From: an archaeon
Lineage (GTDB): Archaea > Nanobdellota > Nanobdellia > Pacearchaeales > GW2011-AR1
Reading direction: 5' to 3'
NCBI GenBank assembly: GCA_043810775.1
Contig: JBDRNU010000010.1
Location: 1 to 44,907 of the forward strand
DNA: 44,907 nt
This document shows, one piece after another, positions 24,210-34,400 of the stretch (position 1 is the first letter of the stretch; each line of letters begins with the position of its first letter). A program made the translations under genes and the position numbers. The notes beneath the pieces are model-generated. The model was not told the DNA's origin and ran no database searches. It saw only the letters and a list, made by a program, of their open reading frames with translations.

Positions 24210-25013
24210 TTATTCCACTCCAAAATAATCATCAATGTCACAACTAATTTCTAAACCAGTTCTTCTTACAAAACTGGAATTATCTCTATGACCTGAAGGA
24301 ATAATTCCTGTAATACCTCTTCCCTCTTGGGGCAATGTAGTGCCATAAGGCATAAGTGCAACAACTCTACATCCCTCATTCTCAACCTTTTCTAAAAAAT
24401 AATTATATAATTCTCTATTATTACTAAAAGGAGATTTCCAGCTACTCACAATCAGAATTCCCCTATAATTTCCAATTTCTCGAATATCATATCTTGAAAC
24501 TTCAGTTAAAATCTCTGAATCACACGCCCTATTACAATAAGTTCTAAGTAATCTCATAAATCCTTGAGCTTTTTCAGGACCGATAAATAAGTATCCTTCT
24601 TCAATCCTGTCTTGATTTATTTCATCTGCCTTTCCTAGCTTCCTTGCAATTTCCTCAGCTAATCCTGAAGGATTATTTCTATGAGCTATAAAGCGATAGT
24701 CAAGTTTCCGTTTCCTAATCCTTTCAGGCAAAGGATATGGCAAGCAAGCAGATGCAACTTTCGTTCCAACATCACTAGCTACTCTTAAAAATTGAAAATA
24801 ATCATCTTCACTGCCGTTAAAAACAGGTTCCTGCCTTCCAACTAAAACAGCTAAATCAACACTATCCCAATCTAAATAAGGATTATGATGAAAAGAAACC
24901 CACATATCTTCATAAAGAAATCCATACTCATAAAGCTCTCTCCTAACATCCTGAATAAACTCTTCCTGCTTTCCATCAGCTAAAAAAAGAACTTTCTTAT
25001 CCATACTGTTCAC
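24210..25013 (-). CDS. Hypothetical protein with two similar alpha/beta domains
   Basis: Internal similarity between the two halves; probable ATG start at 25004. Confidence 0.7.
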   Translation of the reverse strand: MNSMDKKVLFLADGKQEEFIQDVRRELYEYGFLYEDMWVSFHHNPYLDWDSVDLAVLVGRQEPVFNGSEDDYFQFLRVASDVGTKVASACLPYPLPERIRKRKLDYRFIAHRNNPSGLAEEIARKLGKADEINQDRIEEGYLFIGPEKAQGFMRLLRTYCNRACDSEILTEVSRYDIREIGNYRGILIVSSWKSPFSNNRELYNYFLEKVENEGCRVVALMPYGTTLPQEGRGITGIIPSGHRDNSSFVRRTGLEISCDIDDYFGVE

Positions 25014-25102
25014 CTAATTTTAATATTTATAAACATTTTTATATTATAAAATAACTATCAATCACTCTTGAAGCTAATTCAGGGTAAGCTTAAAAGAAAA
25101 TC

Positions 25103-25151
25103 TCAGAAAACTTTGGTTTCTGATGACTGTCAGAATTCTAAAGAATTCTGA
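25103..25151. repeat. Tandem palindromic hairpin element
   Basis: TCAGAAA-actttgg-TTTCTGA, a 6-nt spacer, then TCAGAATTC-taaa-GAATTCTGA; lies directly 3' of the rhomboid gene. Confidence 0.75.
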
Positions 25152-25156
25152 AGCCG

Positions 25157-25777
25157 TTAGGTGTTCTTTAATAGGTATCTATCTTCCCAAAGCCTAATTC
25201 CCTGTTCAGGAATCTCAACTCTGGGCATCTTCTTTTTTCTCCTGATTTTACTCTTAAAGTAAATTCCAAATATTAATCCAATAGCTAATCCAGATAAATG
25301 CGCAAAATTTCCAATTCCTCCCTGTCCATATCCAAAAGCTCCAAGTACATCACCAATAGTCCATAAAAAAGAAGCAATAATCAAGGGCATTGGAACAGAA
25401 AAAGCCCATACAGGCATACCTGGTCTAATTACAGTCAAAGCTCCAATCACACCCATTATTGCTCCACTAGCTCCTAAGCTTGAGCTATAAAAATTAACTG
25501 AAAACAAGTTAGCTAAAATACCAGAAACAAAAAATATAGCTAAAAAATTCTTCCAACCTATAAATTTCTCTAAAATCAATCCAAAAAGTAATAAAGCAAA
25601 CAAGTTAAAAACAAGATGAGTCAAGCTTCCATGCAAAAATATTGCTGTAATCAATCTCCAGGGCTGAGAATATGACAGCTGATTTAACACAAAAACATCA
25701 GTAAACCCGGGAATAATTACTTGAAAAATAAATACACCAATAATAAACAAGCTCATCCACAAAGCAATAAATTTCAT
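25157..25777 (-). CDS. Rhomboid-family intramembrane serine protease
   Basis: PWR, FLHGSLTHLVFN, catalytic GASG, AHLSG; multiple transmembrane helices. Confidence 0.95.
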   Translation of the reverse strand: MKFIALWMSLFIIGVFIFQVIIPGFTDVFVLNQLSYSQPWRLITAIFLHGSLTHLVFNLFALLLFGLILEKFIGWKNFLAIFFVSGILANLFSVNFYSSSLGASGAIMGVIGALTVIRPGMPVWAFSVPMPLIIASFLWTIGDVLGAFGYGQGGIGNFAHLSGLAIGLIFGIYFKSKIRRKKKMPRVEIPEQGIRLWEDRYLLKNT

Positions 25778-25928: not shown

Positions 25929-26058
25929 GGTGGATGTTGTATAATGGTTATTATTTGCGGTTGTGGGGAGTGAGATCGGGAGCGGAAATTCATTTCCAAG
26001 CTATAACGAGCGAGCTCGCGAATTCCGCAAGAAGAGGGTTCGAATCCCTCCTTCCACC
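25929..26058 (+). tRNA. tRNA-His(GTG) with encoded G-1 and a 57-nt intron at 37/38 (25967-26023)
   Basis: Acceptor GTGGATG/CTTCCAC with G-1:C73; anticodon stem TGCGG/CCGCA; GTG at 25963-25965; T arm GAGGG-TTCGAAT-CCCTC; BHB with central helix TTGT/GCGA and outer helix GAGT/GCTC. Confidence 0.95.
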
Positions 26059-26091
26059 CTTCATTCTAAATTCATTTCTTAGGAGGATAAC

Positions 26092-26148
26092 ATGGTAGCT
26101 AAAAATAGCTGTGGTTTAGTTCACAGAGACCTCAGAAATTTACTCTGA
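26092..26148 (+). other. 18-codon mini-ORF with a strong Shine-Dalgarno: either a leader peptide or the out-of-frame 5' end of the PRTase gene
   Basis: AGGAGG at 26081-26086, ATG at 26092, peptide MVAKNSCGLVHRDLRNLL*. Confidence 0.5.
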
Positions 26149-26239
26149 TTTATTCATTTTAGATGATTTAACTCCTTTAGGGGTAAGTCTTCCTTTTGAA
26201 CTTTTAGACACCTTTAAAAAGAAAAAACAACAAGTTTGT

Positions 26240-26830
26240 TTGCTCAATTCTGAAGACCTTGCGCTAGAATTAGCAGTACTTGTAGAAGATTTTAATTCCC
26301 CAGTCTTAGTAGGTAGTGGAGGAGTAATGACCTATACTTTAATGACACGACTAGGGTATAATAAAGACCCTAAGATTATAGGTGTAAAAAGAAAATACAT
26401 TTATGAAAAAGGACAAACTCGTCCAAAAATAAGCTTCTCCGTTAATGGAAACTATGAAGGAAAAAACTTTATTGATGACATAATTGCTAGTGGAGCAACA
26501 ATAAGTCAGTTTGGAGAAAATCTAAGATGTGCCTCACTCCTTCTAAGCTCTCAAACAAGGGGAGAATACCGAACAAAACAAGGAAGTACAATTAAATCAG
26601 TAGACGACCTTTTTGTAATTCAAAGAGTTAATTCTAGACAAGGATTTCCAGCAATTTTTTCTTCAAGATTCCTCGTGAAACAAATCAGAGATAACCCAGA
26701 GTATATGAAATATGTATCTAAATATGCAGACACACTTCTACTAACAGAAGTGATACAAAATATTGATAGAAAACCATTTGATTTGCTTTATGAAAACCCA
26801 ACAAAATTCATCCAAACTTATGGAGGTTAA
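26240..26830 (+). CDS. Type I phosphoribosyltransferase-like protein (5' end uncertain or frameshifted)
   Basis: PRPP-binding loop FIDDIIASGATI, plus VGSGG and VKR. The frame is open back to 26120 without an ATG. Confidence 0.75.
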   Translation: MLNSEDLALELAVLVEDFNSPVLVGSGGVMTYTLMTRLGYNKDPKIIGVKRKYIYEKGQTRPKISFSVNGNYEGKNFIDDIIASGATISQFGENLRCASLLLSSQTRGEYRTKQGSTIKSVDDLFVIQRVNSRQGFPAIFSSRFLVKQIRDNPEYMKYVSKYADTLLLTEVIQNIDRKPFDLLYENPTKFIQTYGG

Positions 26831-26831
26831 A

Positions 26832-27368
26832 ATGATAAGAATAGGAATAATAGGTCCAAGTGAAAAAAACATAAAACTAAACCAAAAACAAAGAATTGAA
26901 AATATAGCAGAAAAAATAGGAGAACTGCTCGCCCAAAAGCGAGCAGTTATTTTAACTGGAGGTATGGATGGTATAATGGAGTATGTAGCTAAGGGTGCAA
27001 AGAAATTTAATGGTTTAACTATAGGAACTCCAGGAAATAAGAAAAACTCATCAAATCAATATATAGATATAGAAATTCTAAGTGATGTTGATGTAGGAAG
27101 TTTTATTTTTAGTGCTCTTCCAAATTGTGATGCAATAATAACTCTTCCAGGAGGAGCTGGGACTCTTGCAGAATTATGTATAGCTTACAGAAGAAAACTA
27201 CCTATTGTAATAATAAAAGGCTTAGACTTATATTATGATAGTTTAGTAAATAACTACCTAGATAATTCTAAATGTGTGCTTATAAGGGGAGCTTCAAGTC
27301 CAGAAAACGCAGTAGAATTAGTACTTAAACTAGCTAAAGAAAACTTAATAAACCAGAAAAAGATATAA
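26832..27368 (+). CDS. LOG/SLOG-family (TIGR00725-like) Rossmann-fold nucleotide-binding protein
   Basis: IGIIG, LTGGMDGIME..AKGA, PGGAGTLAE. GGAGGT at 26822-26827 supports the ATG at 26832. Confidence 0.88.
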   Translation: MIRIGIIGPSEKNIKLNQKQRIENIAEKIGELLAQKRAVILTGGMDGIMEYVAKGAKKFNGLTIGTPGNKKNSSNQYIDIEILSDVDVGSFIFSALPNCDAIITLPGGAGTLAELCIAYRRKLPIVIIKGLDLYYDSLVNNYLDNSKCVLIRGASSPENAVELVLKLAKENLINQKKI

Positions 27369-27375
27369 GGTTATC

Positions 27376-28251
27376 ATGAAAAATCAAATAAAACTAGGAA
27401 TACCAAAAGGAAGCTTGCAGGAAGCAACAATCAAGCTATTTGGAAAAGCAGGCTTCAATATAATAGTAAATGAACGCTCTTATAAACCATTAGTTGATGA
27501 TGATGAGATCTCCTGTCTTTTAATTAAAGCTAAGGAAATTCCCAAATATGTTGAGAAGGGAGTTCTGGATATAGGTATATCAGGAGAAGATTGTATTTTA
27601 GAAACTAAGTCAGAAGTTGAAGAAATTGAAGAACTGCTATACTCAAAACAAAGATTCAAAAAAGTTAAACTAGTTCTTGCAGTCTCTAAAGACTCTAATA
27701 TTAAATCATTAAAAGACTTGCAGGGTAAAAGAATAGCTACAGAATTTGTAAATATAACTCGCGATTACCTTGAAAAAAACAATGTAAATGCTGAAGTAGA
27801 ATTCTCCTGGGGAGCAACTGAAGTTAAAGTTCCTGCGCTAGTAGATGCAATTTCAGAGCTAACAGAAACAGGCGCATCACTAGAAGCAAATAATCTCAAG
27901 ATAATTGATACTATACTTGAATCTACTACAAAACTAATAGCAAATAAAAGTTCAATGCAAGATTCATGGAAAAAACAAAAAATTAATCAAATATCCACCC
28001 TGCTAAAAGCAGCACTAGATGCAGAAGGAAAAGTAGGGCTAAAAATGAATATTGAAAAGAAAAATCTAGATAAATTAGTAAAAATAATACCTGCTTTAAA
28101 AAACCCTACTATTTCAGACCTTACAAACAAAGATTGGGTAGCAGTAGAAACAATTATTAATGAAGAAATCGTAAGAGAAATAATACCAAAACTAAAAGAG
28201 GTTGGAGCTTCAGGAATAGTTGAATTCCCTTTAAATAAAATAATTCACTAA
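27376..28251 (+). CDS. hisG: ATP phosphoribosyltransferase, long form with C-terminal regulatory domain
   Basis: IPKGSL, DIGISGED, RIATE, SWGATE, TETGASL..N.L, PALKNPTIS. Confidence 0.97.
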   Translation: MKNQIKLGIPKGSLQEATIKLFGKAGFNIIVNERSYKPLVDDDEISCLLIKAKEIPKYVEKGVLDIGISGEDCILETKSEVEEIEELLYSKQRFKKVKLVLAVSKDSNIKSLKDLQGKRIATEFVNITRDYLEKNNVNAEVEFSWGATEVKVPALVDAISELTETGASLEANNLKIIDTILESTTKLIANKSSMQDSWKKQKINQISTLLKAALDAEGKVGLKMNIEKKNLDKLVKIIPALKNPTISDLTNKDWVAVETIINEEIVREIIPKLKEVGASGIVEFPLNKIIH

Positions 28252-28264
28252 AAGAGGCAAGAAA

Positions 28265-29425
28265 ATGGAAACAGTAAAAGGATTTAATGACTATACAGGA
28301 CAGGAAGCTATTAAACGTGAAAAAATTACCGAGGTTCTTGTTAAAAATTTCAGGCTTTACGGCTTTGAACCAGCTGAAGCTCCAATTATTGAGTACGAAG
28401 AATTTGTAAAAGGAGATAATCAAAATGATGAAGCTGTTTCAGATATTTACAAGCTTAAAGATAAGGGTGCAAGAAACCTTGCTTTAAGATATGAAGTTAC
28501 ATTTCAGCTTAAACGGCTTGCTAAAAACAAAAAGCTTCCTTATAAAAGATATCAGATAGGTCCAGTATTCCGTGATGAACCCTCATCTTCAAACAGAGTA
28601 AGGCAGTTTACCCAGTGTGATGTTGATACTGTAGGCTCTTCAGCAAAAGATGAAGCTGAAATCCTAGCTCTAACTCAAAAAATATTCAAAGAACTTAAAA
28701 TCCAGGCAGAAATTCAGGTTAATTCAAGGAAGTTATTGAATTCTGTAATTAAAAGCCTGGGCATAGATAATACTGAATTTGTCTTGCGGGAAATTGACAA
28801 GCTAGATAAGCAGGGTGAAGATAATGTAAAGCAGAGCTTATCTAAATTTATTGAAAAGCCAAAAATAATCAAACTATTCAAAGCTCTAAGCCAAAGTCTG
28901 AGCTCTTTTAAGAAATTTGAAGGTTATAAAGAGCTAAAAGAAGTATTTGATTTATGTGAATTATACAAGGTAAAGGTAGTTTTCAAGCCAACTCTAGCCA
29001 GAGGTTTATCTTATTATAATGGCACAGTTTTTGAGGCAAAAACTCGCGAGTTTAAAGAAACTTTAGGTGGTGGAGGCTCATATATGATTAACAATACTCA
29101 ATCAACAGGAATCTCTTTTGGCATTGAAAGAATTTCACAACTATCTAAGCTAGATCCTGAAAATGAAAAAATACTGATTATCTCAATCAAGCAAGATAAA
29201 AAAGCCATTTTACTGGCTGAAAAGCTAAGAAAACAGGGAAAATCAGTAATAATCTCAGATAAAATAACAAAAGCATTAGAATACGCAAATTCCTATAATA
29301 TCTCTCAAGTAATCTTTCTCGGAGAAAAAGAAATTAAATCTAAAAAATATAAAATTAAAGACATGAAAACCGGGAAAGAGCTCCTGGTTTCAGAAAAAGA
29401 GCTAGTCGAAAAGCTGAAAAATTAA
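28265..29425 (+). CDS. hisS: Histidine--tRNA ligase
   Basis: KGFND, LRYEVT, FRDE..RVRQFTQCD, RGLSYYNG, GGGGSY, GISFGIER, and a C-terminal anticodon-binding domain. Confidence 0.95.
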   Translation: METVKGFNDYTGQEAIKREKITEVLVKNFRLYGFEPAEAPIIEYEEFVKGDNQNDEAVSDIYKLKDKGARNLALRYEVTFQLKRLAKNKKLPYKRYQIGPVFRDEPSSSNRVRQFTQCDVDTVGSSAKDEAEILALTQKIFKELKIQAEIQVNSRKLLNSVIKSLGIDNTEFVLREIDKLDKQGEDNVKQSLSKFIEKPKIIKLFKALSQSLSSFKKFEGYKELKEVFDLCELYKVKVVFKPTLARGLSYYNGTVFEAKTREFKETLGGGGSYMINNTQSTGISFGIERISQLSKLDPENEKILIISIKQDKKAILLAEKLRKQGKSVIISDKITKALEYANSYNISQVIFLGEKEIKSKKYKIKDMKTGKELLVSEKELVEKLKN

Positions 29426-29777: not shown

Positions 29778-30701
29778 TCATTTCAAACCTAAATTCCCCT
29801 TCATTATCTCACTACTAATATCAGAAAAATTCGCCAGAGGATTGCTATAACCAGCATTTAACTCCTCTTTAACTTCCTCAATATCATACTTTATTCTTTC
29901 TTTTACATTCTTATCATAATGCTCAAACAGCCAAATCCAAATTTCACCAAAATGCCCTTCCTGTTCTAAAAATACCTTTCTCTGATGGTCTAGATGCAAT
30001 ACCGGCAAGAAACTTGCAACTTTTTCTTCTTTGCTATCTCCAATCAGTTCAGAATAAGAAATTCTGTCTTTCTTCTTTTTAAACGAAGTTTGAATTCTAG
30101 CATAGATTTTCCTAATCCTGTCTTTAATATTAACTCTTGTTCTTGGAAATACAATTTCAGCTTCCCTTAACTGGTGTTTCCTAGATATTTCCTTTCTAAT
30201 CCTTCTATTTTCAGTAGTGATCGCTGTATTCAGGGCTTGCATTAACTCCTGTAACGATACCTTCCTAAATCTTGGCAAAGGGGTCCTAGGATATAAATCA
30301 GGAACTTCATCAGAATCAAATTCATATTTTTCTTTTTCCTTAACATCTCCCTCTTTTTTTCCAAATAAAATATCATCAATACCCTTAAGGTGCTTATTTA
30401 ATAAAAACTCTGATTTTAATCTTAATAATAAAGAAGCAGCTAATAATACCTTGCTAGATAAAAAGAAATTAGCCTCTTCAAGCTCGCGAATTTTAACAAG
30501 ATACTTATTACTTAACAAGACAATATCTACATCCCAAGGATCAAGCTGCTCGCTATTAATTAAATCATAAATTATAGCCTGCCAACTTACTTCCTCACTA
30601 GTTAATAAATCATAAATATGATTATGATTCATTCTATCATTTCCAACTTTAACCTCGTTTTTTAAGCCTTCTAAAGGCAAAATATCGCCATTTTCAGCCA
30701 T
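29778..30701 (-). CDS. scpA: Segregation and condensation protein A (kleisin)
   Basis: LDPWDVDI..L, LLAASLLLRLKSE, PRFRKVSLQELM, FLPVLHL..LEQEGHFGEI. Confidence 0.93.
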   Translation of the reverse strand: MAENGDILPLEGLKNEVKVGNDRMNHNHIYDLLTSEEVSWQAIIYDLINSEQLDPWDVDIVLLSNKYLVKIRELEEANFFLSSKVLLAASLLLRLKSEFLLNKHLKGIDDILFGKKEGDVKEKEKYEFDSDEVPDLYPRTPLPRFRKVSLQELMQALNTAITTENRRIRKEISRKHQLREAEIVFPRTRVNIKDRIRKIYARIQTSFKKKKDRISYSELIGDSKEEKVASFLPVLHLDHQRKVFLEQEGHFGEIWIWLFEHYDKNVKERIKYDIEEVKEELNAGYSNPLANFSDISSEIMKGNLGLK

Positions 30702-34275: not shown

Positions 34276-34400
34276 GGGTGCGTAGTTTAATGGTAAAATA
34301 GACGGCTCCAGCGAGCAAGTTTGCGAGGCTATAAAACAAGCTAAAATCAAACAAGCTTGCGAGAAACCGTCGGCTGGGGGTTCGATTCCCTCCGTGCCCA
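34276..34400 (+). tRNA. tRNA-Trp(CCA) with a 54-nt intron at 37/38 (34312-34365)
   Basis: Acceptor GGGTGCG/CGTGCCC; anticodon stem GACGG/CCGTC; CCA at 34308-34310; T arm GGGGG-TTCGATT-CCCTC; relaxed BHB; intron stem GCAAGTTTG/CAAGCTTGC. Confidence 0.95.

Follow-up and report, generated by a model that had tools for sequence, protein, structure and literature searches.

Why should a small archaeal genome in which no other gene for histidine biosynthesis is found keep hisG, and keep it between the genes for tRNA-His and histidyl-tRNA synthetase? HisG catalyses the first of the ten steps of that pathway, at a high energetic cost. The question is raised by a stretch of 44,907 nucleotides (the window) from an archaeal genome, here called G000, whose assembly is 0.995 Mb and 80% complete. 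Five co-oriented genes follow each other on its forward strand: an intron-bearing tRNA-His, a gene with a phosphoribosyltransferase (PRTase) fold (ORF1), a gene of SLOG cluster 4, a long-form hisG and hisS. A preliminary description of this DNA had pointed to the tight packing of the last four, which is confirmed by gaps of 1, 7 and 13 nt between ORF1/SLOG, SLOG/hisG and hisG/hisS, and had proposed the cassette as a candidate system for signalling or turnover of phosphoribosyl-ATP (PR-ATP) or PRPP. Judged by comparison of sequences, the five-gene cassette is not one conserved system.

The tRNA-His gene (anticodon GTG) lies at 25929/25930 to 26059 on the + strand. Rfam did not detect it when the entire window was scanned at the gathering cut-off, nor did ARAGORN with intron mode switched off; it was found by aragorn -i and by RF00005 in a search confined to the region (40.1 bits, E 3.9e-7). 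The intron of 57 nt sits at the canonical place after position 37 (25967 to 26023, reported by aragorn -i as i(38,57)). The bases, read directly, give a genome-encoded G-1 at 25929 and C73 as discriminator, which together with the anticodon identify a tRNA-His; CCA is not encoded.

At the other end hisS (28265 to 29425, + strand) codes for 386 amino acids with a class II core (PF13393, 117 bits) and an anticodon-binding domain (HGTP_anticodon, PF03129, 32.6 bits), as expected of HisRS, while the TIGR00442 score (272.5 bits) is just below its cut-off of 286.75. The gene is the only HisRS-like one in the assembly (one tblastn match), and orthologues are present in 184 of 201 genomes of the order. 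HisZ was considered as an identity for this product and rejected: the anticodon-binding domain is there, and TIGR00443 gives 120.6 against a cut-off of 271.65.

ORF1 was called at 26240 to 26830, with a TTG start and 196 amino acids. Homology to full-length relatives reaches upstream to a GTG at 26111, and we describe a divergent type I PRTase-fold gene at 26111 to 26830 on the + strand. The match (26114 to 26827) contains one in-frame TAG, at 26117 to 26119, so that the frame is broken at codon 3, after which homology runs uninterrupted to the stop. The genome uses TAG as a normal stop codon, at the end of 99 of 620 long frames. A canonical start codon for a restart is available only at TTG 26240; a product made from there would lack 43 codons at the 5' end, of which about 40 are homologous and include the conserved FILDD strand. 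Unless the TAG is an assembly error or is bypassed, ORF1 as read here is probably inactive or truncated. Upstream, the leader region (26081 to 26148, + strand) has an AGGAGG-like motif followed by ATG 26092, which opens an upstream ORF of 18 codons that overlaps the start of ORF1 in a different frame. By direct comparison, a 15-nt core of the leader, TAACATGGTAGCTAA, is identical in a homologous locus, L026.

That ORF1 encodes a type I PRTase, as first proposed, holds for the fold and the PRPP loop. The family profile matches PDB 1hgx (E 2.5e-7), the AF2 model has a pLDDT of 94.6, and Foldseek gives 37 matches at E<=0.001; among the matches listed all are PRTases except two titled hypothetical or unnamed. 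The core fold is common with the 6-oxopurine and adenine PRTases (HGXPRT 1hgx, XGPRT 1a95 and S. solfataricus APRT 4trb), as are the acidic pair and the SG-T PRPP loop (DDIIASGAT), and the family columns D123-S127-G128-T130 are nearly invariant. It does not extend to an intact reading frame, given the stop at codon 3, or to membership of a Pfam family: ORF1 of the window matches neither PF00156 nor any other Pfam family even at E<=10, and distant members of its family score 17-25 bits against PF00156, under the cut-off. Further, the family differs from those PRTases in an extra N-terminal strand motif (FILDD), in a unique helical C-terminal half and in its restriction to DPANN archaea plus, by Atlas leads, CPR bacteria. 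It is rare, with full-length matches in 1/401 order genomes and 2/401 class genomes, and its partner is either SLOG or a HAD phosphatase fused in one protein.

The next gene, at 26832 (probable ATG start) to 27368 on the + strand, is single-copy in the assembly and encodes a Rossmannoid protein of the LOG-like superfamily (SLOG cluster 4, TIGR00725-like). PF18306 gives 105.1 bits against a gathering threshold of 26.3, and 105.4 in a six-frame search of the genome. The name LOG, given to it at first, fits the SLOG fold and the motifs GGxxGxM and PGGAGTLAE (LPGGAGTLAEL read in translation), which are common to LOG/PpnN-type phosphoribohydrolases and to SLOG relatives such as TM1055 (1rcu) and 2iz5. 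It does not fit the family models. All LOG cut-offs are missed, those of PF03641 and the cytokinin-LOG equivalog included (PF03641 25.7 against 27, NF058542 25.7 against 300, TIGR00730 35.9 against 96.35), and a strict LOG identity was rejected; TIGR00725, at 93.4 bits, is under its cut-off of 106.9 as well. Among solved structures it is closest to 1rcu, 6y01 and 2iz5, the MoCo carrier protein. We know of no member of SLOG cluster 4 with a demonstrated activity. PMC8989509 names PGGxGTxxE as the LOG motif and states that it is not sufficient by itself.

The hisG gene itself (27376 to 28251, + strand) is of the long form, as the preliminary description had it. The catalytic domain is recognised by PF01634 (158 bits, cut-off 25.5) and TIGR00070 (179.8, cut-off 75.75), and the C-terminal regulatory, histidine-binding domain by PF08029 (93.5 bits, cut-off 23.5) and TIGR03455 (111.2, cut-off 40.05). 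The best solved relative is Methanothermobacter HisG-L (PDB 2vd3; 172.8 bits, full-length over residues 5-290), with which the catalytic domains, the regulatory domain and the PRPP-loop region are shared. In contrast to a typical HisG-L gene, it lies between a SLOG gene and hisS and not in a his operon.

The earlier statement that this is not a biosynthetic his operon holds for the whole assembly. In these 80%-complete data hisG was the only his gene found, with none for HisE, I, A, F, H, B, C or D. Searches of G000 for hisD-, hisI- and hisB-type genes (PF00815, PF01502, PF00475) and with PF01503 gave no match, and PF00977 gave partial matches of 15-20 bits only. When a complete reference his operon (from L093) was compared to the genome by tblastn, hisG alone was significant. 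A candidate hisC was rejected, as the reference matched only generic aminotransferases at 28% identity. In G000 itself further his genes could still lie in the missing part of the genome. The orphan status is not an artefact of incompleteness, because relatives that are 95-100% complete (G557, G649, G481, G497, G573 and G597) also have hisG without HisD or true HisA/F, and an orphan hisG beside hisS is seen again in relatives that are 98-100% complete. As for the substrate, the genome has two canonical PF00156 PRTases outside this locus, which makes it plausible that PRPP is available. Against the reading favoured below counts that the N-domain of PRPP synthase was not found in G000, and that only 12 of the 22 hisG-bearing genomes searched have it.

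The surroundings of hisS were compared between genomes. In 36 of 40 control genomes of the order that have no hisG, a co-oriented tRNA-His lies upstream of hisS. In 17 of these 36 loci no more than about 150 nt separate the tRNA from hisS, and in the other 19 the slot between the two holds other genes or none: about nine LMW-phosphatase-like genes judged by eye (PF01451 confirmed in 3/3 tested) and GNAT, confirmed in 5 ORFs from 4 loci. The pair of tRNA-His and hisS is order-wide, and the space between is variable.

ORF1 and SLOG also occur upstream of hisS without hisG. In L026 the order is tRNA-His, ORF1 (237 aa), SLOG and hisS, with no hisG in the 14.7-kb locus. In G567, a 100% complete genome of another family, ORF1 (35% identity), SLOG and hisS follow each other with 4-nt spacing or overlaps, and HisG is absent from the whole genome. 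The order PRTase-like gene, SLOG, hisS is thus kept in all three genomic contexts on which the synteny of the family rests, and hisG is present in only one of them, that of the window. Neither ORF1 nor SLOG was found near hisG in the other hisG loci examined. The check for a conserved linkage of PRTase and LOG genes to hisG, set out in the preliminary description, therefore fails: the pair is linked to hisS instead. The usual partner of hisG is hisI for the long form and hisE for the short form, and hisI is directly upstream in 9 of 14 distinct loci of the clade of the window's HisG (clade A), including all four nearest relatives in the tree. This clade is common in DPANN metagenomes, and its tree conflicts with taxonomy: HisG of G309, of the same genus, is 56% identical, but that of G557, of another family, 73%.

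The reading that we favour, with somewhat better than even confidence, is that the slot is here a mosaic of two independent accessory modules, and that HisG is active and retained by selection. The mosaic is indicated because the PRTase/SLOG pair recurs with hisS without hisG and because hisG normally follows hisI. The unit of tRNA-His and hisS is conserved across this order of small DPANN archaea, which the labels of homologues name Pacearchaeota, and the slot within it is variable. One module would be the rare PRTase-fold gene followed by the SLOG gene, which elsewhere stand directly upstream of hisS; the other would be a long-form, archaeal-type hisG whose clade is well conserved and subject to horizontal transfer between DPANN lineages. 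From the window locus hisI would have been lost, with the PRTase/SLOG pair now in its place. HisG would still convert ATP and PRPP to N1-phosphoribosyl-ATP, be inhibited by histidine and be co-transcribed with tRNA-His and HisRS. Without HisE or HisI, PR-ATP would be an end product, and might serve in a hand-off, as a signal or as a sink.

It is rather unlikely, but less so than the other alternatives, that hisG is instead a functionless, neutral leftover of a hisI-hisG(-hisD...) operon, either inherited from an ancestor or acquired, placed beside hisS by accident in a recombination-prone slot next to the tRNA. A his gene cluster headed by hisI-hisG is present in G575, a larger relative (2.1 Mb), where hisI-hisG-hisD share a contig with two strong matches to His_biosynth (hisA/F-type). 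Other relatives retain different fragments (hisI, hisE or hisD), with in-gene stops in G103 and G701; among the nearest relatives of this HisG, G000 alone is without hisI. The stop in the adjacent ORF1 and the heterogeneous slot contents of the controls also fit decay. Further, the terminal branch of HisG (0.22) is about twice those of its nearest relatives (0.11-0.14), and the protein ranks third of 32 in deviations at conserved columns, which would fit a slight easing of constraint once hisI had been lost. However, the frame has neither stop nor frameshift, the terminal branch is no longer than the median of 0.24, all 72 of 72 invariant columns are retained, and the deviations at 8 of 127 near-invariant columns are mostly conservative, so that HisG looks intact and constrained. 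Its close homologues are also abundant (more than 120 clusters at 62-77% identity), and orphan hisG is found in several families, in 95-100%-complete genomes of 0.9-1.1 Mb where neutral genes are not expected to last. These observations point to hisG being kept by selection rather than decaying.

A second alternative, which we regard as improbable, is that HisG works with HisRS as short HisG does with HisZ, the histidine occupancy of one protein tuning the other, in ATP phosphoribosyltransferase activity or in tRNA-His charging. As in the bacterial HisG-S/HisZ hetero-octamer (PDB 1usy, 1z7m and 5m8h), an ATP phosphoribosyltransferase gene is here linked to a gene of the HisRS family. A hisG or hisG-like gene is directly beside hisS in 8 of the 12 hisG-bearing genomes of the order, and in a ninth it is within 3 kb on the same strand. 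In other orders, 4 of 11 hisG-bearing genomes also have the two genes side by side; all four carry the short form, are 98-100% complete and lack the pathway. Both forms are found at this one position. The long form is accompanied by hisI, and the short form has hisE as a companion in G115 and G103 and as a fusion partner in G151 and G098, while no HisE was found in G083. According to PMC9437257 HisZ is restricted to bacteria, which would leave archaeal short HisG without its usual partner.

The window differs from that system in three respects: the partner is the sole bona fide HisRS, with its anticodon-binding domain, HisG is of the long form and has a regulatory domain of its own, and the downstream pathway is missing. 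Long-form HisG needs no HisZ. Long-form hisG is, moreover, away from hisS in G152, G557, G649, G575 and L076; its adjacency to hisS is within this clade confined to one family and may reflect a single insertion event. As tRNA-His and hisS stay together regardless of hisG, the adjacency may only mark a site that tolerates insertions.

Very unlikely is the original proposal, in which HisG writes PR-ATP at low histidine for the LOG-like and PRTase proteins to read or erase, or in which tRNA-His or HisRS is modified. The close packing, the purine-PRTase-like fold of ORF1, the independent attraction of both modules to hisS and the LOG-type motifs speak for it, LOG-clade enzymes cleaving N-ribosyl bonds of adenine nucleotides according to PMC9503650, but it is without comparative support, the pair and hisG occur together only here, ORF1 is interrupted, and the SLOG protein is under the LOG thresholds with ligand carriers or uncharacterised proteins as nearest solved relatives.

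The gene for a costly enzyme is thus kept, with good conservation and exchange between lineages, in genomes that are among the smallest known, and its neighbours are often the genes for tRNA-His and HisRS. To our knowledge PR-ATP has no use outside the histidine pathway. Either these symbionts would use PR-ATP, PR-AMP or ProFAR in an unrecognised way, or HisG would have a second job. In each of the few contexts available, the uncharacterised PRTase family is followed by SLOG and hisS, a pattern that points to an undescribed nucleotide chemistry tied to histidine charging. A wider idea, speculative and in our view doubtful, is that DPANN archaea, and perhaps CPR bacteria, keep orphan HisG (with HisI or HisE) and the new PRTase (with SLOG or HAD) as two non-homologous, PRPP-dependent accessories of HisRS and not as biosynthetic enzymes. 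They would then make or process a phosphoribosylated adenine nucleotide or a histidine-related compound, through which the charging of tRNA-His would be informed of the state of histidine, ATP or PRPP. Were this so, short-form HisG beside hisS would mean that an archaeal HisRS doubles as a HisZ-type partner, a present-day counterpart of the form from which HisZ presumably descended. For annotation, hisG or hisI alone in a DPANN genome should not be scored as partial histidine biosynthesis.

A minor observation concerns transcripts. Exactly matching contigs from an RNA library are limited to the tRNA intron and a part of ORF1, and may stem from DNA carried over in the library. One of them, of 87 nt, reads once through the 57-nt tRNA-His intron and on into its first 30 nt again, as if the excised intron were a circle.

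The five co-oriented genes of the preliminary description are all found, on the forward strand between 25929 and 29425. The first is tRNA-His(GTG), with its G-1 at 25929. It is followed by a gene with a PRTase fold (here ORF1), which ends at 26830, by a gene of SLOG cluster 4 (here SLOG; PF18306, 105 bits) with a probable start at ATG 26832, by a long-form hisG matching PF01634 and PF08029, and by hisS, matching PF13393 and an anticodon-binding domain. The gaps among the four coding genes are 1, 7 and 13 nt, and all families in the locus are already known. The window, which has a G+C content of 31-37%, is contig C10 of an assembly (G000) of 0.995 Mb in 26 contigs that is 80% complete; its homologues carry the labels Candidatus Pacearchaeota, Nanoarchaeota or Woesearchaeota, and we therefore take the organism to be a DPANN archaeon of the Pacearchaeota type. 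Synteny is shared with relatives in both flanks (24210..25777 and 29778..30701), where the genes are a rhomboid protease, a 267-aa protein without family match and, downstream on the opposite strand, ScpA.

The gene hisS is found in 184 of the 201 genomes of the order. As controls we used 40 hisS loci (L028-L067) from hisG-less genomes of this order, picked for having enough flanking sequence. In 36 of them hisS is preceded by a tRNA-His in the same orientation, within about 150 nt in 17 and at a distance of 420-2640 nt in the remaining 19, where the gap holds an LMW-phosphatase-like gene, GNAT acetyltransferases, other genes or none. Given how regularly the tRNA is present and how varied the gap genes are, tRNA-His and hisS form an order-wide unit, and the slot between them is variable; a unit of this kind appears to be undescribed in the literature searched. 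The commonest gap gene encodes a protein of about 140 aa of the LMW phosphotyrosine-phosphatase/ArsC type (about 9 loci by eye; PF01451 in all three tested). GNAT acetyltransferases come next, confirmed in five ORFs from four control loci.

In the window the slot holds ORF1, SLOG and hisG. No match to the HisD, HisI, IGPD or PRA-PH models is present in the whole assembly, and His_biosynth gives partial matches only, at 15-20 bits. We rejected the weak PF00977 matches as HisA/F, since they are partial, score 15-32 bits and cover only model positions ~55-120; presumably they are other phosphate-binding barrels. Further, when a complete his operon (hisG, D, C, B, H, A, F, I) from the metagenome locus L093 was used as reference in tblastn, hisG alone was matched, while the hisC reference reached generic aminotransferases at 28% identity. 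The assembly contains one HisG and one HisRS. Within the limits of 80% completeness, hisG is thus an orphan in this genome, as had been proposed from the window alone, and the same search bears out the view that the cluster is not a biosynthetic his operon.

HisG is present in 12 of the 201 genomes of the order, and in eight of these hisG directly adjoins hisS (G000, G161, G177, G004, G151, G098, G115 and G083). In G103 it is on the same strand less than 3 kb away and in G152 it is elsewhere; these positions cover ten of the 12 genomes, all but G029 and G030. A tRNA-His is also close in G161, G177, G151, G030 and G083. Two forms of the enzyme occur. The long form, which is that of the window, has hisI directly upstream in 9 of 14 distinct loci (G161, G177, G152, G309, L071, L072/L076, G557, G649 and G575), and in L071 the order is tRNA-His→hisI→hisG→hisS. 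The loci without hisI upstream are the window and four contigs with HisG at 51-64% identity (L073-L075, L077). The short form pairs with HisE: in G151 and G098 the two are fused, whereas G103 and G115 have them separate. HisD is found in only one of the 12 genomes, G103, with a stop inside the gene, and a true HisA/F in none of them.

Over the class, HisG is present in 16 of 401 genomes. Strong HisA/F matches occur in the larger genomes G575 (2.1 Mb), G701, G697 and G669, with HisD too in G575 and G701; G575 has hisI-hisG-hisD and two hisA/F-type genes on the same contig. Only hisI-hisG is present in G557 (95% complete) and G649 (99% complete). In G481, G497, G573 and G597 (98-100% complete) a short hisG lies directly beside hisS, with a tRNA-His upstream also in G497 and G481, and neither HisD nor true HisA/F was found in these four. 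Since hisG without its pathway is seen in genomes that are 95-100% complete, the orphan hisG is a recurrent trait and not an artefact of incomplete assembly. Its recurrence, with hisI or hisE, beside the tRNA-His→hisS unit appears undescribed: the literature searched holds no account of an orphan hisG beside hisS in DPANN. In one paper (PMC8421398) hisG only figures in a list of gene gains at a Woesearchaeota node, and the supplementary data of that paper may bear on the question.

Two details of these loci should be mentioned. In G151 (L019 5323..6282) and G098 (L020 2459..3340) HisG and HisE (PRA-PH) are encoded in one frame directly upstream of hisS. In G177 (L016 4179..5717) and G309 (L069, C13:4660-6156) the hisS-hisI-hisG cluster is adjoined by a second, longer HisRS-like gene, of 512-527 aa, whose identity to the short Pacearchaeal HisRS is about 34-40%.

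In a midpoint-rooted HisG tree of 16 rows, the window's protein groups with G161, L071 and G557, the last from another family (73% identity), while G309, of the same genus (56% identity), clusters with G177. This branching suggests that the hisI-hisG module moves horizontally. Among the close HisG homologues some bear the label Patescibacteria, and by Atlas leads the ORF1 family occurs in CPR phyla as well. The metagenome contigs L073, L074 and L075, with HisG 51-63% identical to the window's and without hisI or hisS, carry other genes that look bacterial by eye; they may reflect DPANN-CPR sharing or mis-binning.

The pair of ORF1 and SLOG has a different distribution. It is found at none of the other hisG loci examined. 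Full-length relatives of ORF1 are present in one of 401 order genomes (the window's own) and in two of 401 class genomes (the same and G567); the other 41 class matches are 17-25-bit matches to the PRPP loop of other PRTases. An additional relative is present in the species-level genome collection, in a Ca. Pacearchaeota genome (JAAOYJ010000002). In both other contexts visible, the locus L026 and the genome G567, the order is ORF1→SLOG→hisS. In L026 a tRNA-His precedes them by 40 nt, and hisG is missing from the 14.7-kb locus. In G567 the genes are separated by 4 nt and then overlap by 4 nt, identity to the window's proteins is 35% for ORF1, 39% for SLOG and 26% for HisRS, and no HisG is found in this 100%-complete genome. 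As the pair is missing from the other hisG loci and precedes hisS where there is no hisG, it is linked to hisS and not to hisG. A conserved PRTase-LOG-hisG neighbourhood, the search for which the preliminary description had suggested as a check, is therefore absent from the other hisG loci examined. The PRTase-like→SLOG→hisS triad, too, appears undescribed in the literature searched.

The window is a mosaic. Its slot reads ORF1(TAG)-SLOG-hisG, while the slot of the nearest HisG relatives holds hisI-hisG and the same position in L026 and G567 holds ORF1-SLOG; hisI is absent from the window's assembly.

ORF1 matches nothing in Pfam or NCBIfam. Among 5.8 billion clusters it has four relatives, of 225-239 aa, one of them named phosphoribosyltransferase, and a profile search of 1.84 billion representatives gives 35 family members. 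A five-sequence profile matches the HGXPRTase 1hgx over the PRPP-loop half (E 2.5e-7). With a five-sequence alignment AF2 reaches a pLDDT of only 37.4, so we used the model built from 34 sequences (pLDDT 94.6, pTM 0.92). Foldseek with this model gives 37 matches at E<=0.001, with target-normalised TM-scores up to 0.61; those listed are type I PRTases (APRT, XGPRT, HGPRT, HGXPRT, UPRT), except two titled merely as hypothetical or unnamed proteins. By profile, model and fold comparison, the assignment to the type I PRTases made earlier is right at the fold level, and ORF1 represents a family of its own, marked by a FILDD strand at the N-terminus and a C-terminal half that is helical. One protein of the representative library (P0156, 461 aa) joins a distant PRTase domain of the ORF1 family to a HAD-type phosphatase (PF13419, PF00702), and this fusion suggests that the family makes a 5'-phosphoribosyl compound which then undergoes further processing.

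The N-termini of the relatives align upstream of the TTG start called in the window. There the frame reads GTG 26111, GTT and TAG (26117-26119), followed by unbroken homology, and the genome search reports a match at 26114-26827 with "1 TAG". With an in-frame TAG, homology downstream of it and TAG an ordinary stop, ORF1 is interrupted at codon 3. From the TAG up to TTG 26240 the frame offers no ATG, GTG or TTG. The 196-aa product starting at that TTG would be short of 43 N-terminal codons, of which about 40 are homologous, and would so lose a core strand of the model. The TAG is known from the assembly; among the listed matches of the window to RNA-run contigs (not reads), none spans it, and none bridges the SLOG/hisG junction with at least 31 letters on both sides.

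Upstream, an SD-like motif and an ATG open an 18-codon ORF that runs across the start of ORF1 in a different frame (leader at 26081..26148 in the window and 6971..7038 in L026). Of this leader 15 nt, TAACATGGTAGCTAA, are identical in the two, though the ORF1 proteins are merely 57% identical. That a +1 shift from the frame of this upstream ORF would bypass the TAG is pure speculation. A 19-nt insertion after ATG 26092 was rejected as an explanation of the 5' end, as L026 has ATGGTAGCTAA upstream of its own intact start. Recoding of TAG was rejected because this codon terminates 99 of the 620 long frames of the genome.

The LOG assignment of the preliminary description holds in part. The SLOG protein keeps the GGxxGxM and PGGxGTxxE motifs; however, it scores below the LOG thresholds (25.7 against 27 for PF03641 and 25.7 against 300 for the cytokinin-LOG equivalog), and its match is to SLOG cluster 4. 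The SLOG clusters were reportedly defined by Burroughs et al. in 2015. The nearest solved relatives are TM1055 (1rcu), 6y01 and a molybdenum-cofactor carrier protein.

Judged by conservation, the window's HisG looks functional. It has no stops, keeps every one of the 72 columns that are invariant in a 32-sequence alignment and deviates, mostly conservatively, at 8 of 127 near-invariant columns, where the 32 sequences deviate at 0-11. Its terminal branch is 0.22, against 0.11-0.14 in the nearest relatives and a median of 0.24, and its clade comprises more than 120 clusters at 62-77% identity. The PRPP synthase N-domain was not found in the window's genome and is present in 12 of the 22 hisG-bearing genomes searched; since two canonical PRTases are encoded elsewhere in the genome, PRPP must be available somehow. 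Without HisE or HisI, HisG can here make PR-ATP only, while the hisG module of the relatives could go on to PR-AMP or ProFAR. There is one precedent for putting a blocked front end of the pathway to use: in Salmonella, phosphoribosylamine can form from ProFAR when HisA activity is reduced (PMC3485032), a route that cannot apply here because HisI is missing. The idea that HisG writes PR-ATP and the PRTase and LOG proteins erase or read it finds no support in the comparison, and the interruption of the PRTase gene weakens it. A predicted HisRS–HisG complex, run without controls, scored 0.00 and 0.00 and is evidence neither way.

Finally, the tRNA-His carries an intron. It escaped ARAGORN run without introns, and also Rfam at gathering settings across the whole window, but scores 40.1 bits with Rfam when the search is confined to the region. 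With the -i option aragorn predicts a 57-nt intron after position 37 (25967..26023); the gene encodes G-1 (25929) and C73. An 87-nt contig in the groundwater metatranscriptome run X4 consists of the 57-nt intron and a 30-nt wrap-around, with 0 mismatches. As this is the expected product of a k=31 assembler on a 57-nt circle, it suggests that the intron is cut out at exactly the predicted borders and then circularised. All run shares are at most 0.19, so we make no claim on habitat. A second intron-bearing tRNA in the window is tRNA-Trp(CCA), at 34276..34400, with an intron of 54 nt.
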